A model generated the notes under the pieces. It searched no databases and was not told the DNA's origin. It saw nothing but the letters and a program-made list of their open reading frames with translations. A DNA stretch of 58,859 bases, taken from an uncultured Candidatus Saccharibacteria bacterium (GTDB lineage Bacteria; Patescibacteriota; Minisyncoccia; Phycocordibacterales; PALSA-1337). Positions 46,010 through 58,859 of this stretch are shown in pieces; position 1 is the stretch's first letter; each line of letters starts with the position of its first letter. A program made the translations under genes and the position numbers. Location: positions 1-58,859 of the forward strand of contig CAZLCD010000002.1 in the NCBI GenBank assembly GCA_964558375.1, given 5' to 3'.

Positions 46010-46082
46010 TGGACTCGAGGAGATTCGAACTCCTGACCTTTCGCTTGCAAAGCGATTGCTCTACCAACTGAGCTACGAGCCC
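46010..46082 (-). tRNA. tRNA-Ala (anticodon UGC), no encoded CCA
   Basis: The reverse complement folds as GGGCTCG-TA-GCTC-AGTTGGTA-GAGC-A-ATCGC-TTTGCAA-GCGAA-AGGTC-AGGAG-TTCGAAT-CTCCT-CGAGTCC-A. The G3:U70 Ala identity pair is present. Confidence 0.9.
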
Positions 46083-46137: not shown

Positions 46138-47055
46138 TTATTTCCTACTTAATGCAAGCTGTATTATATGGTCAAGAAAATGTGACATCGAGCTACCCAC
46201 AGCGTGCAAGGACTTCGGTATCAAAGATTCTTCTGTAAGACTAGGTAAGGTATTGGTTTCCAGAATAAAAATTCCTCGGACAGGATGGATAATAAAATCT
46301 GAATTGGAATAGTGCCTTAAGCCCAAAATTTTATGAGCTTCTATTGAAAGCCTTTCCAACTCTTTTTTCTCATGATCGGAAAAATTTCCAGGGACTAAAT
46401 GTGTAAGTGTTTCTATGGCTGGCAAAGCATAATGCCTATGTGTTCTGAAATCATCTATCACCCCACAGCTTGCCTCTTTACCTTTAATAAATTCTTCAAC
46501 CAAAAGATCATTATCTTTATCGAACATCGTCTCCAGAACTTTCGATAGAGAATTCCAATCTTTAACCAAATGCAAACCAATAGATGAACCGCCCATCAAA
46601 GGCTTAATAATGATAGGCAAAGAAAAAGATTGGAATATCTGTTCATGGATTTTATTGAGATCCTTATCCTTTTTAATAACTTTTGATAGAGGAGTTTTGA
46701 GCTTGTGATCTCGATAAATTTTCTTGGACATTTCTTTATTCATACCCACCGCCGAAGCGAAAGATGTAGAACCGGTAAATGGAATGCCATGAGATTCTAA
46801 AATATGCTGAACCTTGCCATCTTCACCAAAATGTCCGTGAAGTGCATTAAAAACCACATCAACATGAGTCAAAACATCGTGAGGCAATGTAGCCACGCCA
46901 TTCATATGCCATATTCCCCGTCGATCGATAAGTACATCTCTTGCATGATATTTATCATGAGAAAGATTATTAAGAACATAAGTTCCAGTTTTTAATGAAA
47001 CCTCATATTCACTACTTGGACCACCGCGAAGAACGGCTACTCTAGTTCTGTGCAT
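46138..47055 (-). CDS. ddl: D-alanine--D-alanine ligase
   Basis: VAVLRGGPSSEYEVSL..G, ALHGHFGEDG..Q and the ATP-grasp core. Confidence 0.85.
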   Translation of the reverse strand: MHRTRVAVLRGGPSSEYEVSLKTGTYVLNNLSHDKYHARDVLIDRRGIWHMNGVATLPHDVLTHVDVVFNALHGHFGEDGKVQHILESHGIPFTGSTSFASAVGMNKEMSKKIYRDHKLKTPLSKVIKKDKDLNKIHEQIFQSFSLPIIIKPLMGGSSIGLHLVKDWNSLSKVLETMFDKDNDLLVEEFIKGKEASCGVIDDFRTHRHYALPAIETLTHLVPGNFSDHEKKELERLSIEAHKILGLRHYSNSDFIIHPVRGIFILETNTLPSLTEESLIPKSLHAVGSSMSHFLDHIIQLALSRK

Positions 47056-47076
47056 GAACTCAATTATACAATAGAA

Positions 47077-48276
47077 TTATTTAGATAAGAAACTTCGAGA
47101 GCGAACCTTCTTGTGATACGCAATAGCAAACCTATGAGCTTCACTATTTGCTAGCAAAATAGCTTTAGCATGATCATTCACCATCTTTTCATCTCCAAGA
47201 AAATGATCTGGCTTATGTGCATCATTCTTCACCACCGAGACTATAGGAATATCTTTTACTATCTCTCTCGCAGCATTTATTTGTCCAAGACCTCCATCTA
47301 TTACAATAAGATTTGGCAATTTCCATTCAGAATGAGAGAGTCTTCTGGTTAAAATTTCTTGCAGACCAGCAGTGTCGTTGTTCGCATCTTTGGAGATTTT
47401 GAACTTTCTATACTGAGATTTTTCTGGCTCACCATCAAGAAGGACAACCATCACCCCGACGGTAGCTTTCCCTGACATATGAGCTATATCATAAGCCTCT
47501 ATTCTAAAGGAGTTTTGATTGTTAATTTCATTCTTTTCTTTTATCAAAGAGATATCTTGAATATGATCTAGTGCATAGAGAGTATTGCGAACCATCTTGG
47601 CTTTTTCAAATTCCAAAGCCTCGGCGTATTCATCCATCTCCTTCTCAAGAGTTTTTATCAATTGTTTTTTCTTGCCTTCGAAAAATAGAACGAGATTGCG
47701 AATGGTTTTCTGATATTCTTTTTTTGAATCTTGTGAATCTGTATCTGGTGAAAGACCTAGAGATCTGTAGAAACTTTCTTGATGCTTAAGGTTTGCTTTC
47801 TCGTCGCGAAAAGGAAATATTTTTCTTATAATCTTCAAAGCATCCTTAAGTAGAGTGCCTTGAGGATATGGACCAAATTGATATTTTATTTTAAATTTCA
47901 AACTATCCAATTCCCTTTCACGAACGACAATCACTCTAGGGAATTCTTCATCACTAATCACTACGAGGTTGTAACTTTTATTATCCTTTTCTTTGGTATT
48001 AAAATAAGGCTGATGCTTTTTAATTTCATTTGATTCTAGGATAATGGCTTCGAGAACAGAGTCGGTTTCTATAAAGTCAATTTTGTAAGCCTTGGTCACC
48101 ATATCCACAAGTAAGGGACCGCGAGTCTGTATAAGGTCATTTGAGAAATAGCTAGATATACGATCGGCTAAGGAAGTAGCGCGACCTATATATAGTATAT
48201 TATCTTCAATATCCTTAAAGATATAAATTCCTGGGTGTTCAGGAAATTTACTTTTTTTAAAATCTTTAAAAATCAT
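47077..48276 (-). CDS. uvrC: Excinuclease UvrC, short form lacking the C-terminal (HhH)2 region
   Basis: GIY-YIG (PGIYIFKD...ILYIGRATSL), a UVR domain (ALEFEKAKMVRN) and the endonuclease domain (DLIVIDGGLGQ). At 399 aa it is well below the usual ~600. Confidence 0.8.
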   Translation of the reverse strand: MIFKDFKKSKFPEHPGIYIFKDIEDNILYIGRATSLADRISSYFSNDLIQTRGPLLVDMVTKAYKIDFIETDSVLEAIILESNEIKKHQPYFNTKEKDNKSYNLVVISDEEFPRVIVVRERELDSLKFKIKYQFGPYPQGTLLKDALKIIRKIFPFRDEKANLKHQESFYRSLGLSPDTDSQDSKKEYQKTIRNLVLFFEGKKKQLIKTLEKEMDEYAEALEFEKAKMVRNTLYALDHIQDISLIKEKNEINNQNSFRIEAYDIAHMSGKATVGVMVVLLDGEPEKSQYRKFKISKDANNDTAGLQEILTRRLSHSEWKLPNLIVIDGGLGQINAAREIVKDIPIVSVVKNDAHKPDHFLGDEKMVNDHAKAILLANSEAHRFAIAYHKKVRSRSFLSK

Positions 48277-48277
48277 T

Positions 48278-50899
48278 TTATTTCTTTAGAATTTTCTTCA
48301 AATACTGCCCCGTGTAGGATTTCTCACTTCGAGCTATATCTTCTGGAGTTCCTCTTGCTACAATCTTTCCACCACGAGACCCTCCATCTGGACCAATATC
48401 TATAACATAGTCCGCTGACTTTATAAGGTCAAGATTGTGTTCTATAACCACTACAGTATTACCCTTTTCTACAAGTCTTTGGAGTATTTCTATAAGCTTC
48501 TTCACATCTTCATAATGAAGTCCGACGGTCGGTTCATCAAGTAAGTAGATAGTTTTCTGTAAATGCGCTCGATAGAGTTCTGAAGAAATCTTCACACGCT
48601 GAGCTTCACCACCAGAAAGTGTCGTAGCACTTTGACCGAGCTTCAAGTAACCAAGACCTACTTCTTCTAGAGTTTTCAATCTATCAAAAACCGTAGGAAT
48701 ATCTTCGAAAAACTTTAAGCCTTCTTCGACAGTCATTTCCAAAACATCATAGACATTTTTGCCACGATATTTTATGTCGAGAGTTTCTTTCATAAATCTT
48801 TTACCATTACAAACCTCGCAGGGAACATAGACTGTAGGCAAGAAATGCATTTCTACAGCTATTTCTCCATTACCCTGACAAGCTTCGCAGCGACCGCCCT
48901 TTACATTAAAAGAAAACCGACTAGGACCCCATCCATGTGCACGAGCTTCAGCAGAATTGGCAAAAAGATCACGGATATGAGTCCATGAGCCTGTATAAGT
49001 TACAGGATTTGATCGAGGGGTACGACCGATAGCACTTTGATCTATAAGAATAGTTCGACCGAGGTATTCGCTACCAGTAAAGCTTGTGCAGTTGAAGATC
49101 TGCGCTGTTCTATGTCGGAATTCAAGCTTAGCCTCGAGGTTTTTGTGAAGGATTTCATACATGAAAGAACTTTTACCTGAACCAGATACTCCAGTTATAA
49201 CATTCAAACAAGAAAGTGAGATCTCCGCATTTAGATCTTTAATATTAAAAACATTTCCACCTTTAATAGAAATTTTGCCCTTAGGTTCTCTGCGAGTCTT
49301 TGGAACTTCGATTTTTTTCTCTCCACGAAGATAGGCCAAGGTAAGTGAACCAGAATCATTGTGCTTAGCAGTCAACAATTCATCCAAATATCCAGAAACC
49401 ACTACCTCACCCCCATGCACTCCAGCCTTTGGTCCGATATCGATAATATAATCTGAAGAGAACATCGTATCTTCATCGTGCTCCACTACTATTATAGTGT
49501 TGCCAAGGTCACGCAGATCTGTAAGGGTTTTTATAAGTCTGTCATTGTCTCTTTGATGAAGTCCGATAGTTGGTTCATCGAGCACATACAAAGCTCCCAC
49601 AAGTCCAGAGCCTAGCTGAGAAGCTAGACGAATACGTTGAGCTTCACCACCAGAAAGTGTGTGCGCACGACGATCGAGGGTCAAGTATTCGATACCCACA
49701 TTGACCATAAACTGCAATCGAGACTCTATCTCTTTCAGAATAACTTTGGCGATTTCTTTTTCAGATTCAGAGAGTTTGATTTCTTCAAAAAATACTTTAG
49801 CTTGCTCTATAGACATGGCTGTTGTCTCGACAATATTTATGCCATCAATTCTTACAAAAAGAGCTTCTTCTCTAAGTCTTGCACCCTTACAAGTCTCGCA
49901 CATTTCGTTGCTAAAAAATTCTTTGGTACCGAGACCATTACAAGTAGCGCAAGCTCCATAAGGTGAGTTGAAGGAGAAGAGTCTCGGCTCGATCTCTGGA
50001 TATGAAAATCCATCATATGGACACATAAACTTTACAGACATCAACTTTTCTTCATCCGGGAATTCTATTTTAATAAGTCCCTGAGCTTCTTCTATGGCTT
50101 TCTCCAAAGATTCTGAGAGTCTCTCGCGAGCATTTTCACTCTGCTTATTATCTTTGCTATCGTTTTTTGTGTTTGTTTTAAATTCACTTAGAAAAATTTC
50201 ATCGACTAGAACATCGATATTGTGTTTTTTGTTTTTATCAAGGATTATCTGTTCACGAAGACGCATGACTTTGCCATCAATCTTGACCCTATCGTACCCT
50301 TTACCTAGAAGGTCATAGAGAAGTTGATAATATTCACCCTTTCTTCCTACTACTATAGGTGCATAGATCCTCACTTTCTGGTCACTAAGCTCTATACCCA
50401 TAACTTTCTTTGAGCTTTTGTTGTATGTCATCACTTGCTTGACTATAGTTTCCAGTATTTCTTCTTTGGAAATGCGGTGAATCTCTCTATTGCAAGTCAG
50501 ACAATGAGGTTTACCTACTCTCGCAAAAAGAATACGTAGATAATCGTATATCTCTGTTATTGTCGCAACGGTGGAGCGAGGGTTGTTTGATCTAGACTTT
50601 TGGTCTATAGAAATGGCTGGAGAGAGACCTATGATCTCATCGACATCGGGCTTTTGCATCTGTTTTAGAAACTGTCTAGCGTAAGAGGAGAGAGATTCTA
50701 CATAACGTCTCTGCCCTTCAGCAAAGATAGTATCGAAAGCCAAAGAGGACTTACCAGAGCCAGAAAGACCAGTTATAGCCACCATTTTATTCCTTGGCAT
50801 TTCAACTGTTATGTTTTTTAAATTGTGAGTGCGAGCACCTTTGACAATGATTTTATCTTCATTATCTCGAGATTTTGGGCTCTGATTCTTCTTAATCAT
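48278..50899 (-). CDS. uvrA: Excinuclease ABC subunit UvrA
   Basis: Two ABC modules: [12 protein letters not shown] and [10 protein letters not shown], with LSGGEAQR present twice. Zinc modules CxxC are also present. Confidence 0.95.
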
Positions 50900-50949
50900 G
50901 GTAGTTGTTAACTATAACAACATATACAAAATAGGCAAATACCCCACCA

Positions 50950-51744
50950 CTAGGATGATTTCAAGAGAAGATCCACTTCTCTAATGATTTCATCTAGAGA
51001 AACAGCTGCTTTAACCAAAAATTTATTGACACCCAGCATCTTGGCTTTGTCCAAGTCGCTCTGTTTGCTCATATTGGAAAGCATGATGGTTGGAATGTTT
51101 TTAAATTTCTCATCCATTTTAACTTTCTGTAATATTTCAAAACCATTTGTCTCTGGCAAGAGCAAGTCCAAAACTATGATATCTGGTGTTTCTGTTTCTA
51201 AAATCTTAAATAGTTCATCGGCTTTATTGGCTTTCAATAATATATGACCGGTACTTTCAAACTTTTTTGATAAAATTGAACTCAAGAGTCTATCGTCTTC
51301 TACCCATAAGACTTTTTTACCACTTCCAACTCCAGTTTTTGTATTTTCCATATTTTCTTGTTTTATTTCTCTTCCAAATACTTTCTCTATTTTAATAATA
51401 ATTTCTTTTACTTCGATATGAGACTTTATAATATAATCTTTTATGATCGGTGTCGATGGAATCTGCTTCATCTGTATAGGGTTGCCAGAATTTGAAACCA
51501 CTATCACAGGAATCTTGGTTATGTCTCGATCGAAACTTTTTTCATTTAAAATATCATAACCACTTTTGTTAGGAAGAACTGTATCTATAACCAAAAGGTC
51601 AGGCTTAAATTCCTTCATGCGCGCAATAACATCCCCTCCAACAGTAACTATGTTGGGTGAATAATCGAGTTTATTGAGCTCTTCTACTAATGAATTTGCA
51701 AGACCAGTGTCGTTAAGAGCAACCAAAATTTTCTCCTTAGACAT
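50950..51744 (-). CDS. Tandem receiver-domain response regulator without output domain
   Basis: The second domain is a canonical REC: VLWVEDD, IIVLDLLLPETNG, MLSN and KFLVK. The first domain is REC-like but more divergent. Confidence 0.7.
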   Translation of the reverse strand: MSKEKILVALNDTGLANSLVEELNKLDYSPNIVTVGGDVIARMKEFKPDLLVIDTVLPNKSGYDILNEKSFDRDITKIPVIVVSNSGNPIQMKQIPSTPIIKDYIIKSHIEVKEIIIKIEKVFGREIKQENMENTKTGVGSGKKVLWVEDDRLLSSILSKKFESTGHILLKANKADELFKILETETPDIIVLDLLLPETNGFEILQKVKMDEKFKNIPTIMLSNMSKQSDLDKAKMLGVNKFLVKAAVSLDEIIREVDLLLKSS

Positions 51745-51752
51745 GCCTTGTA

Positions 51753-53765
51753 TTATACCATCCTTTTTTTCAAAGCAATAATCTCATCTCTGATAATAGC
51801 AGCAGCCTCAAAATCCAGCTCTTTTACAGCATTATTCATCTCTTCTTCTTTCATTTTCATTAGCTTCTTTGGGTTCTGCTTAAACATTTCTTCGTCCATC
51901 TTTAGAAGTTCGGTAACGGTCTTATCGTGCTCAGTTTTTAAGTGATCTGTGATATCTTGAATCTTTTTTATAATAGTCTTCGGAGTGATGCCATGTTTGG
52001 TATTGTAATCTGTTTGGATTTTTCTACGACGCTCAGTTTCTTTTATAGCATATCGTAGCGCATCATTCATAATGTCAGCATAGAGGATGACTCGGCCATT
52101 TATATTTCTTGCCGCACGGCCGATGATCTGTATGAGTGATGTTTCAGATCTTAGGAAACCAGCTTTATCTGCATCCAGAATTCCGATAAGCGAAACTTCT
52201 GGAAGATCCAACCCCTCTCGTAATAGGTTAACCCCCACAAGCACATCAAACTTCCCTCTTCTAAATTCAGTTAGTATGGTTATACGATCGATAGTTTTAA
52301 TATCACTGTGTAGATATTCGGCTTTAATATTCTTTTCTTTTAAAAATTCACTAAGATCTTCAGCCATCTTTTTTGTAAGGGTTGTCGCTATAACCCTATC
52401 TCCTTTCTTGATTACTTTCTCAGCCTCCTCAATAAAATCATAGATCTGTCCTTTATAGTTACCCTTTTCTACTACAGGTCTAACTTCTATTACTGGATCG
52501 ATAAGTCCTGTCGGACGTATTACTTGCTCCACTATCTGCTCACTATGTTCTTTTTCGAACTTACCTGGAGTAGCGGTGGTATAAATAACTTGATGCACAG
52601 CCTCCTCAAATTCTTCAAACTTCATTGGACGATTATCCTTTGCTGAAGGAAGACGAAAGCCGAAGTCTATAAGGGTCTCTTTTCTCGAAGCATCACCAGC
52701 GTACATACCACCGAGTTGTGGAACAGTCACATGGGATTCATCTATGACGGTTAGGAAATCTGGCGTTCCATCCGCCTTGTGCGGAAAATATGCAAGCAAA
52801 GAATCTGGTGCCTCACCAGCTTTCTTACCAGAAAAATGTCTGGAATAATTTTCAATACCATTACAATATCCAACCTCACGTATGAGCGCGAGGTCATATT
52901 TTACTCGACGCTTCAGTCTCTCTGCTTCGAGCATCTTACCTGCTTTCTCTAGTTCTTTTAGTCTAGATTCTAGTTCAGATTTTATGGTATTAAAAGCTTT
53001 TTTGCTTTGCTCATCTGTACTTATAAAGTGCTTGGCTGGAAAAAGAAAAATAGTTTCATGTGTCCCTCTGACTGCCATAGTCACAGGATCAAGTTCTATA
53101 ATATTTGAAATTATACTACTATCGTATTCTATTCTATATACCGTCCTATCACTTACAGGCATGATCTCTATCATATTTCCTAGAGCGCGAAATTGCCCAG
53201 CCTTAAGATCTGCATTGGTTCTTTCGAAGTGAATGTCGATGAGTTTGCGTATAAGCTCTGTTCGAGAGAGATCCATCCCTTTTGAAATTTTTAAATTGAC
53301 CTTTTCATATTCTGCTGGACTACCCAAACCATAGATACAAGAAACAGATGCGACAATTATCACATCTTTGCGAGTCAACAAAGCTTGAGTAGAGGCATGA
53401 CGAAGACGATCTATCTCTTCATTTATCATCGCTTCTTTTTCGATATAGGTATCAGTTACTGGCATATAAGCTTCTGGCTGATAATAGTCATAGTAAGAGA
53501 CGAAATAATGCACAGCATTGTCCGGAAAAAATTCTTTATATTCTTGAGCGAGTTGAGCGGCAAGTGTTTTGTTGTGAGCTATAACAAGGGTTGGTTTGCC
53601 ATGATTGGCGATAACATTGGCGACAGTGAAAGTTTTACCAGATCCTGTCACGCCAAAGAGCGTCTGTTTCTTCATGCCCTTTTTAAGCCCTTTTGTAAGA
53701 GCTTCTATGGCTTTTGGCTGATCCCCGGCTGGAGACATAGATTGTGAGATATTGAAGAGAGACAT
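51753..53765 (-). CDS. uvrB: Excinuclease ABC subunit UvrB
   Basis: GDQPKAI, Walker A GVTGSGKTFT, DESH and the C-terminal UVR domain ELDFEAAAIIRDEI. Confidence 0.95.
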   Translation of the reverse strand: MSLFNISQSMSPAGDQPKAIEALTKGLKKGMKKQTLFGVTGSGKTFTVANVIANHGKPTLVIAHNKTLAAQLAQEYKEFFPDNAVHYFVSYYDYYQPEAYMPVTDTYIEKEAMINEEIDRLRHASTQALLTRKDVIIVASVSCIYGLGSPAEYEKVNLKISKGMDLSRTELIRKLIDIHFERTNADLKAGQFRALGNMIEIMPVSDRTVYRIEYDSSIISNIIELDPVTMAVRGTHETIFLFPAKHFISTDEQSKKAFNTIKSELESRLKELEKAGKMLEAERLKRRVKYDLALIREVGYCNGIENYSRHFSGKKAGEAPDSLLAYFPHKADGTPDFLTVIDESHVTVPQLGGMYAGDASRKETLIDFGFRLPSAKDNRPMKFEEFEEAVHQVIYTTATPGKFEKEHSEQIVEQVIRPTGLIDPVIEVRPVVEKGNYKGQIYDFIEEAEKVIKKGDRVIATTLTKKMAEDLSEFLKEKNIKAEYLHSDIKTIDRITILTEFRRGKFDVLVGVNLLREGLDLPEVSLIGILDADKAGFLRSETSLIQIIGRAARNINGRVILYADIMNDALRYAIKETERRRKIQTDYNTKHGITPKTIIKKIQDITDHLKTEHDKTVTELLKMDEEMFKQNPKKLMKMKEEEMNNAVKELDFEAAAIIRDEIIALKKRMV

Positions 53766-53772
53766 AAATAGA

Positions 53773-54486
53773 CTATATCACATTTTCTATCTGCTCCAAT
53801 ACCCCATCAGTCACCTTTGCTTTAATTGTTGAAGTAGCGTTCTCAAGTAATTGGTCGGAGTATTCGATAAAAATTACACCTTCATTTATAAGAATACTAT
53901 TAATGGTCCTTTTTTCTCCAAGGAAGATCAGATTTGTGCCCATACGACCACTAGTTGTTGCAAGTGCTGTAGATAGATAGTGCAGTACTCCCCTTTCTTC
54001 ATCAGCTCTTTTTATAATAAAAGCTACATCATCTTTACCATCGCTATTCAGATCCCCCAAGGCCTCAGTACCGAAGTATGTTTGTGGAACCTTGGGTGTA
54101 GCTTTTATAAATGAACTAACTTGAGCTACATTCATATCTGGAATAATGATCATTTGTTCTATACCTTTTTTTTGTTGAAGAAATATAATTACTACAAGTG
54201 CAAGAAAAATAAAAATAAAAACTGGAATTATTTTTCTATTATTTTTAATAATAAGACCAATTATTAATCCATATATTGTGTAGATGCAAACAAAGAAAAG
54301 AAATGTTGCGATAAGTAAGCTGCTATCTGGAATAGCTAAAGTATCAAAGATTGGTTTCAAAGAAACCCAATATAAGATATTACCCATGAATCCATCTGTA
54401 CCTATTATAAAGGTCATGTAGGCAGATACGACTACTCCTATTAAAAATCCGATAATTGTTGTCTCAAGAGTACTTAAGTTTTTCAT
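53773..54486 (-). CDS. Hypothetical membrane protein with a C-terminal extracytoplasmic domain
   Basis: Four TM segments, then a soluble part containing an FG-GAP/VCBS-like GDLNSDGKDDVAFI. Confidence 0.45.
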   Translation of the reverse strand: MKNLSTLETTIIGFLIGVVVSAYMTFIIGTDGFMGNILYWVSLKPIFDTLAIPDSSLLIATFLFFVCIYTIYGLIIGLIIKNNRKIIPVFIFIFLALVVIIFLQQKKGIEQMIIIPDMNVAQVSSFIKATPKVPQTYFGTEALGDLNSDGKDDVAFIIKRADEERGVLHYLSTALATTSGRMGTNLIFLGEKRTINSILINEGVIFIEYSDQLLENATSTIKAKVTDGVLEQIENVI

Positions 54487-54487
54487 A

Positions 54488-56218
54488 TCATTTTATTTTC
54501 TTAATTTTTTTCTCAACAAAACTATCGATTGTGTCTATATTGTCACGTAGTTCTCTAAATATCTTCTCTTCTTTCTTATTCAATGAACGATCTTCTTTTG
54601 CACCTTCGAGAATACTGAGTTGTCTACTAAGTTCATCTTTGAATGCCATCATTACCTTATGAACATCATGTATTGTAATATCCAAATCTTTTTTCATTCT
54701 TTTCTTCAAACCAAAGAAACTGTGCCATCCTATGTATGCTAATAGTAATATAAATAGAACCATTATAGAGATAAGTATCACCATGGATAGAGCTAGAGTT
54801 ATATCTTTAGTATTTTTGACAAAATTGGTATCAACAACTCTTAGAAGAATTTTATTAGAGACTGGACTTTTTATATCGTTTTCAAATGAAATCTGTGACC
54901 ATACATTATAGTTACCCGTAGACTTGAATTCTGGAATAGAGAATAGGAAGGAACCATTGGTATCAGAAATTGTTCTGTAGGTTTTTGTGTTGCCGTCTTC
55001 ATTTTCGATATAAATATCGATATTTGATTGTGGATAATTAGATGTACCGATTACTTGAGCGGTGTTATTTTTGAAAATACTTTCTGATTCAAGTTTGATT
55101 TTAGGGCCAATTATTTCAGAACTAGTATAAGTAGTATTGGTCTCGCTATGATTCCCTGCTTTATCATATACAATTGCAGATAAATTATGTTCCCCACTAT
55201 TTTCAATTGGCAATAGATATTCACTATTCTTACCCAAAAGGTCCTTACTTACTCTGAAGGCTGGTTTATTATCTATTTTGAAAGAGAATGAGTCTACACC
55301 AGAACTCGCATCTAAGGCTGAGATATAGACAATGTCCCTAAATTCCTCATTCTTTACATCGATAGAAAAGTTTTCTGGAGGTACCCTATCAACTTGAACT
55401 TTGTAGTGCGCTATCGGTCCAGCACCTGATTCATTTACATATCTTAGATGAAAATATGATACACCTTCAGCTAGATTACTTATTGTTTTTTGAGATACAG
55501 AACTATCATAGTTAATAGTTGGTGTTGAATTGGATATTCTTCCTAATAGAGTCTGTATCGATACTGTCCCTTCTGGAACAACCCAACTAAAAGAGGCGTT
55601 ACTACTAGAATACCAAACGTCCTGTTGTGGGTGTGTAGAGGATACTATCGTAGGTTTAACCGGTACACCCTTCTTTTCTAGTTGATTATTTGGAACTGGT
55701 ACCTGAACTACAGAACCTATGTCTATGGTGGCAGACTGTTTTGATGTGAGGATATTTGTACCAAAGCCATCGTTTTCTCTAACAGCAGAATCACCAAACA
55801 CTATAGATGCGATACCCTGTTTCTTTGCTCGAAATACGATAGAGGCAATTTCTCCATTTTCACCCGCAAATCCAGGGTTTGGTATACCACCATTAAATGT
55901 AATTTTACCTTCTTGATTGGAAAACTTCGGATCTTCTACCCACAAAGAGAATATAGATGAGCTTTTATTTATCGATACAACCTCCAATAGATCTACGGGG
56001 AATTGAATTATTCCATCTGAATTATTTATTGTTTTACCACTCGTACTAACTATAACTTTTGTAGATATAATATTACCACTCGAAACTTTTGAGGTAACTG
56101 GTGTTATCGATAACGTTGCAGCATTTGTTACCTTTAAAAAACAGACAGAGAAAAGTAGTATGATTGCTGTAGAAGCAAATAACCCGATTGTACTTTTTTT
56201 ATTCAACAGTTGAAGCAT
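54488..56218 (-). CDS. Cohesin-like domain surface protein with Ig-like region, C-terminal TM anchor and cytoplasmic coiled-coil tail
   Basis: After the signal anchor comes LSITPVTSKVSSGNIISTKVIVSTSGKTINNSDGIIQFPVDLLEVVSI...FSLW...EGKITFNGGIPNPGF.GENGEIASIVFRAKKQGIASIVF. This is the pattern of cohesin-domain proteins. A TM segment lies near residue 500. Confidence 0.6.
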   Translation of the reverse strand: MLQLLNKKSTIGLFASTAIILLFSVCFLKVTNAATLSITPVTSKVSSGNIISTKVIVSTSGKTINNSDGIIQFPVDLLEVVSINKSSSIFSLWVEDPKFSNQEGKITFNGGIPNPGFAGENGEIASIVFRAKKQGIASIVFGDSAVRENDGFGTNILTSKQSATIDIGSVVQVPVPNNQLEKKGVPVKPTIVSSTHPQQDVWYSSSNASFSWVVPEGTVSIQTLLGRISNSTPTINYDSSVSQKTISNLAEGVSYFHLRYVNESGAGPIAHYKVQVDRVPPENFSIDVKNEEFRDIVYISALDASSGVDSFSFKIDNKPAFRVSKDLLGKNSEYLLPIENSGEHNLSAIVYDKAGNHSETNTTYTSSEIIGPKIKLESESIFKNNTAQVIGTSNYPQSNIDIYIENEDGNTKTYRTISDTNGSFLFSIPEFKSTGNYNVWSQISFENDIKSPVSNKILLRVVDTNFVKNTKDITLALSMVILISIMVLFILLLAYIGWHSFFGLKKRMKKDLDITIHDVHKVMMAFKDELSRQLSILEGAKEDRSLNKKEEKIFRELRDNIDTIDSFVEKKIKKIK

Positions 56219-57116
56219 TTTTTTTACTCCTTCTTATTTTTTTGAAAATGAATCTTAAGATAATGATCACTATAACTACTGTGATTATAGATATCCATGA
56301 TATACCACTATCTGCAGAAGTCGGATACTTAGCTATTTTTTTGTTACCAGCTTTATCATATGCTGTAACATTTAATACGACGTCATCAGTTTGATTCTTT
56401 AAAACATAAGTACTACCACTTCTTATAAAAGGGTTACCGTCTTCTGAAACCTCGTAGTGACTGATACCAGATTGATTGTCTAGTGCACTGAAGAAAGCAA
56501 ATTTCTTATTTTCGAAGAGGTTTTTGTCTTGTCCTAGGACAATGATAAAGTCTTCCGGTGGTAGGACATCCGACACCACTAGCTCTTTCCATTCATCGTT
56601 TATTTGTACATCATTTTTTCTAGGAACAACATTTATAGTCAGATCCCTTACTACTTTTGCAGATATTCTTGTTCCTTTTCCGTCATTAGCAAAAGCAAAA
56701 ACATTTTTTGGAGAAATAACCATACTTCCCTCTTTCTTGGCTTCAATTATTATCTTGAATAAAGTTGCACCTTCTATACTAAAGCCTCCTGGCACACCCG
56801 CTACGAAAGAAATCGTATTATTATCTTTTGATAGTGATGGTGTTCTTGGCCATAGTCCAAAAGAAGAGTTTGCCAGACTAAATTCTTTTACAGCAAAAGC
56901 ACCGTTTGTCGATTTTAGAGCAATCTCTCCATCAATAGTATTTAGAACTGATCCATCAGAATTTACTTTAACAGAAACAATCAGAGTATCCCCTACAGAT
57001 ATAGTGTTCTTAGAAGATTCTATGTATACACCAGCAGCCGAAACACTTGCTGGAATTAACACTAGGGACAAAAGTATTGAAGCTAATAAATAATTTAATT
57101 TTATATATTTTTTCAT
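56199..57116 (-). CDS. Cohesin-like domain surface protein with C-terminal TM anchor
   Basis: A signal peptide is followed by VYIESSKNTISVGDTLIVSVKVNSDGSVLNTIDGEIAL...FGLW...NTISFVAGVPGGFSIEGATLFKIIIEAKKEGSMVI. The C-terminal TM segment is followed by basic residues. Confidence 0.6.
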   Translation of the reverse strand: MKKYIKLNYLLASILLSLVLIPASVSAAGVYIESSKNTISVGDTLIVSVKVNSDGSVLNTIDGEIALKSTNGAFAVKEFSLANSSFGLWPRTPSLSKDNNTISFVAGVPGGFSIEGATLFKIIIEAKKEGSMVISPKNVFAFANDGKGTRISAKVVRDLTINVVPRKNDVQINDEWKELVVSDVLPPEDFIIVLGQDKNLFENKKFAFFSALDNQSGISHYEVSEDGNPFIRSGSTYVLKNQTDDVVLNVTAYDKAGNKKIAKYPTSADSGISWISIITVVIVIIILRFIFKKIRRSKKNASTVE

Positions 57117-57134
57117 ATTATTTTTTAATAATTA

Positions 57135-58859
57135 TTATTTTTTACCCCACTCATACAAAAGTATGGAGAAATCTACAGAGTCTATTTTAGCATCTTTATT
57201 AATATCTACATACTTATTACTAAATGGTGATATGGTTTTCCAGAAATACAATAGTATAGAGAAGTCGATGGAGTTTATTTTGTCGTCACAATTGAAATCT
57301 GCCCTTCTACAATTGTCAGTTGCCGGTGGACTAGATGATCCCCCACCCCCACCACCTCCGCCTCCGCTAGGAGGATCTACTACGACATTACCGGCCGTTG
57401 CAGTAAATGAACGAGAAGCACCCGAACTATCTGTTCCGAAGTAAACTATCATTTTAAAGTAATAGTTACCTGCATCTGGAACTAGTGCAGTAAGCGTTGT
57501 ATTGAAATCTTCACCAGAATTTATATATTTTGCAGCTGTACCATGGAATACATCGTCTCCACCACCACAAGTATTATTAGAACCTGAAACTACACACCAT
57601 TCATACTGATATTCATATCCAGTTAGTCCTTCGTTAGTTATAGTAACGTTTGCTGCTATTTCTGGTGTTACTGTATCTGAAATACTATTTACAATAACTT
57701 GAGCTGGAGCTGTCACAACTGTCCAATAGTCATTACCTGGCAAGGTCTTACCACTCTCTACTGTTGCTGAAAATACAGTCTCCCATGTTCCTGCTGGAGC
57801 ATTTCCTGCTGTTGTATACGAGTAAGTATATGTACCTACATCTGTTCTTGTCATCGCAACACCATTGGCAATGACGTTTCTACTAGGATCATAGATAGTT
57901 ACTGTTGGTGTATTTAGTGAATCTGTGAGTGTTCCGTTATAAACAGTCGTTAGTGTAGCTAGGTAGTTACTTCCTGCTGTTATTGTACCAAAATCAGATG
58001 AGGAGACTGTCCATGGTGATTGAGAGGATAGAGTTAGAGAAGTCAATGTTCTGGTTGTAGCATTCCATATATCAGAGGCTATAGAAGACATTGAAGTTAG
58101 TGTCCTTACACTTGAAGACCATATCGCTGCTGGAAGTGATGCAAATAATGAACTTGAAGCTGTAGTGATAGTTGAAGCTGTACTTGCTGTACCTGCACTG
58201 ATTGCAGCGGCAATTGATGAGCTAGCTGAGTTGGTATTAGCATTAACTGCAGTTGTAATACCTGAAGTCTGGGTATTTGTATTTGCATTGATTACAGCTG
58301 CGAGAGATGAGCTAGCGGTAGTAAGGTCTGAAAGAGTTGCTAGAGAACCTGAAGTTAGAGTGCCGTCAGTTAGATTACGTGTAGCATATGACCAAACATC
58401 TGCAGCTGAAATTCCTCCAGATGAAGTTAGAGTACGTGTACCGTTTGCCCAAATGTCAGAGACTAGAGTACCGAATGTTGTAAGTGATCTAGAAGTACTA
58501 GACCATACAGCTGTAGGGATTGTTGCCGCTAGAGATGAAGAGGCGGTGAGGATGGTGGCGTTTGTATTTGAGTTGATACTTGATATAGCAGATGTGATGT
58601 TTGAAGCATTAGTTGCTGTACCTGCGGCGATCTGTGATCCAATACTTGTAGAAGCTGTAAGGATAGCTGAGTCGGTGTTTGAGTTAACTGTAGAAGCAAT
58701 ACCTGAAATACTTGAACCTAGAGATGTACTTGCAGTCAACACTGTAGAGTTGGTGTTCGAGTTAACTGAAGCTGTACCTGCAGTAATGGCAGAAGCGATA
58801 GAGGTTGAAGCTGTAGTGATAGTTGAAGCTGTACTTGCTGTACCTGCACTGATTGCAGC
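57135..58859 (-). CDS. Repetitive Ser/Thr/Ala-rich surface protein with poly-Gly linker and C-terminal dockerin-like module; the N-terminus lies beyond the window end
   Basis: The reading frame stays open for all 39 codons from 58742 to the window edge. The C-terminus has two Ca-loop repeats, DFNCDDKINSIDFSILL and DINKDAKIDSVDFSILL, matching the dockerin pattern D-x-N-x-D-x-x-I-x-x-x-D-x-x-x-L. Confidence 0.7.
   Translation of the reverse strand, partial: AAISAGTASTASTITTASTSIASAITAGTASVNSNTNSTVLTASTSLGSSISGIASTVNSNTDSAILTASTSIGSQIAAGTATNASNITSAISSINSNTNATILTASSSLAATIPTAVWSSTSRSLTTFGTLVSDIWANGTRTLTSSGGISAADVWSYATRNLTDGTLTSGSLATLSDLTTASSSLAAVINANTNTQTSGITTAVNANTNSASSSIAAAISAGTASTASTITTASSSLFASLPAAIWSSSVRTLTSMSSIASDIWNATTRTLTSLTLSSQSPWTVSSSDFGTITAGSNYLATLTTVYNGTLTDSLNTPTVTIYDPSRNVIANGVAMTRTDVGTYTYSYTTAGNAPAGTWETVFSATVESGKTLPGNDYWTVVTAPAQVIVNSISDTVTPEIAANVTITNEGLTGYEYQYEWCVVSGSNNTCGGGDDVFHGTAAKYINSGEDFNTTLTALVPDAGNYYFKMIVYFGTDSSGASRSFTATAGNVVVDPPSGGGGGGGGGSSSPPATDNCRRADFNCDDKINSIDFSILLYFWKTISPFSNKYVDINKDAKIDSVDFSILLYEWGKK

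Follow-up and report, generated by a model that had tools for sequence, protein, structure and literature searches.

At the end of contig CAZLCD010000002.1, from a Paceibacteria-type bacterium of the candidate phyla radiation, lies a compact cluster of minus-strand genes which encode, in transcription order, a repetitive fibre protein ending in a dockerin, a short and a long membrane-anchored protein that each carry a cohesin domain, and a further membrane protein. The first three form a real, conserved, non-cellulosomal cohesin-dockerin surface module, and we argue below that this module probably mounts the fibre on the cell. We analysed 58,859 nucleotides (nt) of the contig, and refer to this whole stretch of DNA as the window. 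It contains the 3' part of the fibre gene (57135-58859; 574 codons and a stop, with the 5' end lost at the contig end), coh305 (56199-57116; the short membrane-anchored cohesin protein, 305 amino acids (aa)), coh576 (54488-56218; the long membrane-anchored cohesin protein, 576 aa) and mem237 (53773-54486; 237 aa); these genes, and all the protein features described below, are on the minus strand. The initial annotation had recognised three consecutive minus-strand genes and a fourth lying 1 nt beyond coh576, and a check of the open reading frames (ORFs) located all four exactly where it had placed them.

The genes are tightly packed: 18 nt separate the fibre gene from coh305, coh305 and coh576 overlap by 20 nt, and a single nucleotide lies between coh576 and mem237, with an AGGAG ribosome-binding site 8 nt upstream of coh576. 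Given this packing, co-transcription of the cluster is plausible; promoter- and terminator-like matches at the cluster were no more frequent than in shuffled sequence. The stop codon of the fibre gene is in frame with the start codon of coh305, which makes a pseudo-fusion model, reading through from dockerin to cohesin, at least conceivable.

The fibre reading frame is open up to base 58859, and its 5' part is absent from the window. The very end of the window (58805-58859) is an exact 55-nt copy of 58154-58208. A look-up of the exact 576-aa and 305-aa proteins, aimed at the proposed extension to the N-terminus of the fibre, led to contigs in six further, independent assemblies, from this organism or one 97% identical to it, and all of these contigs also break inside the fibre gene. 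The terminal copy and the six further breaks indicate that the truncation is an assembly break caused by repeats and not a biological feature, with the 55-nt repeat as its likely cause. Because short-read assemblies break at the fibre gene in this way, systematic truncation of the gene is probable in genomes built from short reads, those assembled from metagenomes included.

The fibre protein and the two membrane-anchored cohesin proteins

We took as a dockerin a pair of ~22-residue segments in which an EF-hand-like Ca loop of 12 residues (D-x-N/D-x-D/N-x-x-I/V-N/D-x-x-D) leads into a helix, and this is what the C-terminus of the fibre contains. Its last 59 residues (516-574; 57138-57314) comprise two near-identical Ca-loop and helix segments, DFNCDDKINSIDFSILLYFW and DINKDAKIDSVDFSILLYEW, the duplicated segments reading DFNCDDKINSID-FSILLYFW and DINKDAKIDSVD-FSILLYEW. 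The initial annotation had recognised the dockerin by its motif and named Pfam PF00404 (Dockerin_1) as the check; indeed, this model matches at 32 bits against a gathering score of 22.9, over model positions 2-52 of 57. It also matches the dockerin of the orthologue at locus L002 (27.2 bits) and those of short orthologue fragments, one of which is named 'dockerin type I domain-containing protein' by NCBI. Across 24 species, Asp/Asn is invariant at positions 1, 3, 5 and 12 of the second loop and at position 12 of the first, and positions 1 and 5 of the first loop are at least 90% conserved. The mean identity of the dockerin across loci is 68%, and it is always the last module of the fibre.

Residues 1-280 of the partial protein (58020-58859) form a repeat region interrupted by W-x4-R-x-LT motifs, in which Ser, Thr and Ala account for 60% of residues; this composition, along with the Gly8 linker and the two dockerin repeats, had been described correctly in the initial annotation. 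We call this region a rod on account of its periodicity, rather than its composition alone. The hydrophobic period is 3.75 residues (z 12.5 vs shuffles), and 3.7-3.8 in three full-length orthologues, which is the 15/4 period of non-heptad coiled coils and is consistent with a coiled-coil rod. Next is an MG2-like immunoglobulin (Ig)/β-sandwich domain (residues 281-383; 57711-58019), with a Pfam MG2 match of 18.8 bits that falls below the cut-off and a mean identity of 62% across loci. It is followed by a second β-sandwich with a conserved Cys pair (EWCVV...CGGGDD; residues 384-491, 57387-57710), which is the most conserved part of the fibre, at 70% mean identity, and is retained even at locus L034, where the remaining passenger is swapped. 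A flexible linker with a Gly8 run (residues 492-515; 57315-57386) leads into the dockerin, and a poly-Gly linker occurs in nearly all fibre orthologues.

Full-length fibre orthologues are 517-1387 aa long, with wide variation from species to species that lies mainly in the length of the rod. They begin with an N-terminal signal peptide and then a conserved AAYERYATGDT motif within an MG2 domain, which in L002 passes Pfam (37.8 bits vs 32.8). Searches with Pfam, NCBIfam and PHROGs revealed no catalytic domain in either the fibre or its full-length orthologues, in keeping with the earlier remark that no glycoside hydrolase is attached, and the fibre has no phage or NCBIfam family match. Some fibre signal peptides contain RR or NRF(F/L)K motifs. 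A second type of repeat, with a period of ~11-12 residues (KTKTDTIxWxDVTGI), was also seen beside the pentadecad-like Ser/Thr/Ala-rich repeats and the W-x4-R-x-LT motifs: in L011 at residues ~400-500, in L029 at ~300-400 and 600-710, and also in L013 and L031.

In each anchor, which contains a single cohesin domain, only two segments are hydrophobic: a signal peptide at the N-terminus and a transmembrane helix at the C-terminus, the latter followed by Lys/Arg. It can be predicted from this that the cohesin is outside the cell and membrane-distal. Neither anchor has an LPXTG (sortase) or SLH module; both end in a transmembrane helix and a Lys/Arg-rich cytoplasmic sequence. In coh305, where a signal peptide and a C-terminal transmembrane segment had been expected and are borne out, the signal peptide (residues 1-27, ending in SVSA before AG; 57036-57116; hydrophobic segment 10-28, helix 3-19 in the model) precedes a cohesin-fold domain (residues 28-165; 56622-57035), an Ig-like stalk domain of Big_13/OmpL47 type (residues 186-265; 56322-56561; 64% mean identity across loci), and the transmembrane helix (residues 272-291; 56244-56303), which leads into the cytoplasmic stretch KKIRRSKK.

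The cohesin fold of coh305 comes from its AlphaFold model (predicted local distance difference test (pLDDT) 83.6, predicted template-modelling score 0.69; 38-sequence alignment). When the model was compared with the PDB using Foldseek, cohesins of types I, II and III made up 49 of the top 50 matches, all with a probability of 1.00. The best of these is 2w1n (E 1e-11), from Clostridium perfringens GH84C, such that the top match is a cohesin and FN3 pair, like the two-domain layout of coh305 itself; target template-modelling scores reach 0.82 (2vo8), and the cohesin complexes of OlpA and OlpC (3ul4, 4dh2) are among the fold matches. A CLIPPER (isopeptide) domain, from an isopeptide-bond survey, ranked 33rd and was no better than the cohesins, and we rejected it as a candidate.

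The model of coh576 (pLDDT 82.4) runs from a signal peptide through a cohesin domain (residues 34-168; 55715-56119), a disordered linker, a stalk of three β-sandwiches (FN3-like 190-276, Big_13 286-366 and Ig-like 373-462; 54833-55651) and a transmembrane helix (~residues 473-498; 54725-54802) to a conserved helical cytoplasmic tail (residues 499-576; 54491-54724). This agrees with the Ig-like segments, membrane anchor and coiled-coil tail that had been read from the sequence. Foldseek matched the full-length model to multi-Ig/FN3 chains, and also to 2w1n; Big_13 matches are present in 37 of the 38 orthologues, and the coh576 profile matches repeats of the large adhesion protein 6xi3 (PDB). 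The tail region is modelled as helices at 465-543, 548-562 and 564-575, and has the hydrophobic period of a heptad (3.5 residues, z 6.2). With 41% mean identity and invariant H520, E538, L546 and E550, the tail is better conserved than the transmembrane segment and two of the stalk domains, and the cohesin is the best-conserved ectodomain (54% mean identity vs 30-47% for the others).

The cohesin domains of coh305 and coh576 are 30% identical, with a BLASTP E of 9e-11 over the N-terminal domain, and hhalign joins the 305-aa and 576-aa families with a probability of 99.8% (E 2.9e-29); going by these alignments the two anchors are paralogues, coh576 having two extra β-sandwich domains and the tail. 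Pfam Cohesin (PF00963) matches 6 of the 38 coh576 orthologues, four of them above the cut-off (26.4-33.8 bits vs 24.1; model positions 5-126 of 139); these four are 45-49% identical to coh576. Two coh576 orthologues bear the NCBI name 'cohesin domain-containing protein', and NCBIfam yielded only sub-threshold OmpL47-type and Ca-tandemer matches, to the Ig-like stalk domains. The predicted fold of the 305-aa protein, the Pfam-positive coh576 orthologues and the NCBI names together establish the cohesin call for both anchors. Some relatives encode longer single proteins, of 730-900 aa, with several regions that match the 305-aa profile (P0243, of 872 aa, P0318, P0320, P0326 and P0338; also L042 1638-4040 and L100 1100-3472), and these proteins look like fusions of the short and long anchors, or frameshifts.

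Linkage of the trio across related genomes

On the cohesin side, we surveyed relatives of the 305-aa protein, with one genome per species, which gave 38 loci, and contig look-ups added more (the first 44). All of the ~40 loci retrieved in this way that are long enough to show the whole trio have the gene for the dockerin fibre first, then that for the short cohesin and then that for the long one. As these loci had been chosen through the cohesin, the survey was repeated from the dockerin side. The 62-aa dockerin alone was of no use as a homologue query, returning six short fragments only and no information on other architectures, and a metagenome scan with a dockerin-only alignment was used instead, giving 80 loci. 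A cohesin-family gene lies directly after the dockerin gene in 78 of the 78 loci with at least 600 nt of downstream sequence, 75 of these genes being classed as the short type, and a long-type cohesin is also present in 58/61 loci with at least 1.8 kilobases (kb) downstream. The trio is found in about 120 independent genome or metagenome loci, and conservation of the triad in related genomes, a point raised in the initial annotation, holds via cohesin and via dockerin retrieval alike. Among the ORFs of at least 60 aa in the window and in the first 44 loci, no other carries the dockerin motif.

The dockerin also keeps its place when the passenger changes. At L034 the passenger is replaced by a 327-aa protein with different repeats, and the dockerin is still the last module; at L011 and L029 the passenger is extended by an extra domain between hinge and dockerin, and the dockerin again stays last, in the same genomic slot.

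The 305-aa family is large: in a library of representatives at 50% identity it accounts for 930 clusters at E<=1e-30, mostly of proteins ~300 aa long. Where its sources are named, they are Campbellbacteria, Taylorbacteria, Adlerbacteria and Pacebacteria, which are groups of Paceibacteria or Parcubacteria. Many third-party records that bear the trio (L007, L008, L010, L011, L014 and others) are titled 'uncultured Candidatus Saccharibacteria bacterium'. These records are 55-63% identical to the window and to records labelled Paceibacteria or Parcubacteria, and L010 also shares the downstream uvrB-uvrA-uvrC synteny; the Saccharibacteria labels on them may be placeholders or errors.

A cohesin-dockerin surface module and its possible roles

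We favour the interpretation that the trio is a non-cellulosomal cohesin-dockerin module which mounts a fibre on the cell surface, and would give this a probability of roughly 0.6. It builds on the order of the genes, the identities and folds of their domains, the signals of topology and the strict reciprocal linkage shown above. The initial annotation was borne out in nearly every particular. The module is not a cellulosome, as no enzyme domain is attached: there is neither a catalytic dockerin-bearing subunit nor a tandem-cohesin scaffoldin, as a multi-enzyme complex would have. Given its recurrence in ~120 related fragments, it probably represents a widespread, undescribed mode of fibre mounting in these bacteria.

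How would such a module work? The fibre would be secreted, as the signal peptides of the full-length orthologues suggest, and would be ordered from the outer tip inward as an MG2-type Ig domain, an α-helical, Ser/Thr/Ala-rich coiled-coil rod, two β-sandwiches, the poly-Gly hinge and the dockerin. The anchors would be type-I membrane proteins, with the cohesin held off the membrane by one (coh305) or three (coh576) Ig-like stalk domains. Outside the cell, the dockerin would bind Ca2+ and plug non-covalently into the cohesin of one or both anchors, and the base of the fibre would thereby be tethered to the cytoplasmic membrane. The poly-Gly hinge would allow freedom of orientation, and the rod would project the MG2-type tip outward. 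A coiled-coil rod would imply that the fibre is an oligomer, for which a 15/4 period predicts a trimer, and several dockerins per fibre could then engage both paralogous anchors. The cytoplasmic helical tail of coh576 would give the assembly an intracellular contact, and may serve in signalling or transmembrane coupling. As for the function of the fibre itself, our best guess, by analogy, is that it most likely acts in attachment to or contact with other cells or surfaces, which would also fit the variability of the rod between species.

A similar arrangement is known in Ruminococcus flavefaciens, where CttA, a non-catalytic dockerin-bearing adhesin, sits on the cell-bound single-cohesin anchor ScaE, both being encoded in one gene cluster (PMC5301203). 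As in that pair, we find a non-enzymatic protein with a C-terminal dockerin and a surface-anchored single-cohesin protein in adjacent genes, and the role of CttA is attachment (PMC5301203). However, ScaE is linked to the wall by sortase through an LPXTG motif, whereas here there are two paralogous single-pass membrane anchors; CttA has carbohydrate-binding modules and an X-module beside its dockerin, in place of which the fibre here combines Ig-like domains with a predicted coiled-coil rod, and has a poly-Gly hinge ahead of its dockerin; and, unlike CttA-ScaE, no enzyme cellulosome accompanies the module, in a host that belongs to the candidate phyla radiation.

The cohesins that match the coh305 model best are the non-cellulosomal ones of C. 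perfringens (2w1n, 2jh2 and 2vo8), including the order of cohesin then FN3/Ig, and the use of cohesins outside cellulose degradation is common to these modules and to the anchors described here. In C. perfringens, the cohesin modules are part of secreted glycoside hydrolases and join one enzyme to another, whereas the cohesins here are on membrane anchors, and their only dockerin partner, still putative, is a fibre without an enzyme domain. The idea of surface cohesins that hold a large assembly outside the cell by binding its dockerin is mirrored by the anchoring scaffoldins of Clostridium thermocellum (SdbA, OlpB, Orf2p, OlpA and OlpC). Those scaffoldins are attached to the wall by SLH domains, and their cargo is enzyme complexes; in the anchors described here we find transmembrane helices and one cytoplasmic tail, and there are no enzymes. 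The rod, with its 15/4 hydrophobic period and motifs of the I-x-x-N-T type, is reminiscent of the stalks of YadA-type trimeric autotransporter adhesins, and both period and motifs resemble those of non-heptad coiled-coil adhesin stalks in general. Unlike the YadA type, there is no β-barrel membrane anchor and no outer membrane, and anchoring is predicted to be by the dockerin. What sets the module apart from known cases of cell anchoring is the combination of single-pass membrane attachment, in place of a sortase or SLH link, with two paralogous anchors of different height, a conserved cytoplasmic tail and a cargo in the form of a presumed coiled-coil fibre. In full-text searches that paired either domain name with Patescibacteria, Parcubacteria or 'candidate phyla radiation', no literature description of such a module came up; the nearest mention is of an envelope protein with a dockerin domain that is essential in a cultivated Saccharibacterium and was interpreted as possibly glycan-targeting (PMC10633639).

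Several observations weigh against our interpretation, beginning with the N-terminal half of this organism's fibre, which is missing. Others bear on what the tethered fibre is for. With the same tether, it could be a constitutive part of the envelope (for example a coat of S-layer type, a spacer or a strut that spans the wall) rather than an adhesin for a host or partner, and as the module is widespread and moderately conserved, we take such a structural role to be a serious alternative, even if on balance an unlikely one. Across the 930 clusters of the 305-aa family the domain plan is little changed, and the conserved domains keep 59-70% identity across genera, when host-recognition proteins usually diverge faster. 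The short anchor (~60%) and the C-terminal part of the fibre (62-69%) are moderately identical to their counterparts in two relatives, next to 84-90% for UvrA/UvrB, a level of conservation that would suit a housekeeping component of the envelope no less than an adhesin. Housekeeping genes also neighbour the trio in close relatives (tatC/tatA upstream, uvrB downstream), and the full-length model of coh576 matches S-layer proteins too, albeit only through generic Ig-like domains. On the other hand, rod length and repeat content vary strongly and passengers are swapped, which is typical of exposed adaptive tips, and the closest functional analogue, R. flavefaciens CttA on ScaE, is an adhesin (PMC5301203). 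An origin of the cluster in a phage or mobile element, for example as a tail-fibre-like protein with its receptors or chaperones, would be hinted at by the slightly lower guanine-plus-cytosine content of the 54-58 kb bins (0.335-0.353, vs 0.36-0.43 in most other 2-kb bins of the window) and by the rod repeats (W-x4-R-x-LT, and KTKTDTI-W-DVT in some orthologues), which we take to resemble those of phage fibres. However, none of the cluster proteins matches a PHROG family, no relative of the 305-aa family was found among 2.9 million viral contigs, and a viral fold library gave generic Ig-like matches only; with chromosomal synteny to uvrB/uvrA/uvrC and tatC that is stable across genera, we consider such an origin extremely improbable.

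A different challenge is whether the dockerin and the cohesin-like domains are partners at all. They could belong to co-expressed surface proteins, with the dockerin, as a Ca-stabilised module, binding, for instance, a glycan or host surface and the cohesin folds acting as generic β-sandwich spacers, although we find this quite improbable. It is here that the sequence searches count against our interpretation: Pfam Cohesin has no match at E<=1 in coh305 or coh576, and misses all 38 members of the 305-aa family, in which only weak BatD matches were seen. The PF00963 check suggested by the initial annotation was therefore negative for both window proteins, and the cohesin call stood through the four passing coh576 orthologues and the cohesin matches of the coh305 fold. 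Likewise, no cohesin was retrieved from the PDB sequences, whether the query was one of the window proteins or the profile of either family; the sole match was 6xi3, an adhesin with Ig repeats, to the stalk. A coh576 orthologue that passes Pfam Cohesin retrieved no cohesin either. To our knowledge, there are many dockerin- and cohesin-like modules outside cellulosomes without a demonstrated partner, and the essential dockerin-domain envelope protein of Saccharibacteria was itself read as possibly glycan-targeting (PMC10633639). Co-evolution does not separate the two scenarios. In partial Mantel (mirror-tree) comparisons, the dockerin correlates with the coh576 cohesin domain (r 0.39-0.47, p about 0.001), but a control pair, the coh305 Ig domain and the coh576 cohesin, gives r 0.44, and the dockerin-coh576 signal falls to r about 0.25 without divergent taxa; considering both the similar control and this weakening, we rejected the unspecific signal as evidence of binding. 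The partnership is favoured by the strictly reciprocal adjacency in ~120 loci, by a dockerin that stays constant while passengers change, by the cohesin being the best-conserved ectodomain of the long anchor, and by fold matches that are specifically to cohesins and not to generic Ig folds.

The interest of a fibre-mounting module lies in where it is found. Bacteria of the candidate phyla radiation are thought to depend on contact with other cells, and the surface molecules of Paceibacteria are essentially unknown, with most of the proteins concerned annotated as 'hypothetical'. The module offers concrete and widely conserved surface candidates, namely a fibre and two membrane sockets. It would also mean that the cohesin-dockerin interaction, familiar mainly from clostridia that degrade cellulose, is used for the membrane-anchored and enzyme-free mounting of fibres in a distant lineage. 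Could the trio be part of something larger? It might be the central part of a surface-fibre organelle that spans the membrane and is common to the whole Paceibacteria lineage, in which oligomeric fibres are docked via several dockerins on a mixed base of short and long cohesins, the coh576 tail is coupled to intracellular partners, and assembly depends on upstream genes (the twin-arginine (Tat) translocase, a protein with a KRFFLK motif, and large proteins). We see this as a speculative extension, and a rather doubtful one; if true, it would be a new kind of bacterial appendage, which might correspond to the pilus-like structures on ultra-small bacteria.

Genes around the trio

The fourth gene of the cluster, mem237, encodes a membrane protein, as had been proposed, and this description can now be refined to three transmembrane segments and a ~130-aa C-terminal domain, which is probably extracellular and in which one FG-GAP-like Ca-loop motif (GDLNSDGKDDVAF) is present. 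As a neighbour, mem237 is less constant than the members of the trio are to each other: among the first 44 loci, 25 have a mem237-family gene next to the trio, on one strand or the other, but such a gene was found in only 3/80 dockerin-retrieved loci, and in view of the latter count its link to the system is loose.

Upstream of the fibre, relatives encode a ~210-aa protein with an N-terminal KRFFLK motif that resembles a Tat signal, together with a protein of 720-950 aa without a family match, a ~250-aa protein and a 60-aa protein, and then tatC and tatA. This set is located at 3584-8271 in L002 and 51-5860 in L001, and was also seen in L011, L012, L014, L015, L028, L032, L036 and L091. In the 22 metagenome loci with enough sequence the upstream arrangement is variable, with tatC upstream in 11.

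Downstream of the cluster, the window carries uvrB, a gene for a 264-aa response-regulator-domain protein, uvrA, uvrC and a D-Ala-D-Ala ligase gene (46138-53765, minus strand), all on one strand with very short spacers, and in an order that is kept in the close relatives L004, L009, L010 and L045. Elsewhere in the window, complete tRNA genes lie at 1091-1162 (plus strand) and 46010-46082 (minus strand), and a further tRNA gene is cut by the window start (1-55, minus strand).

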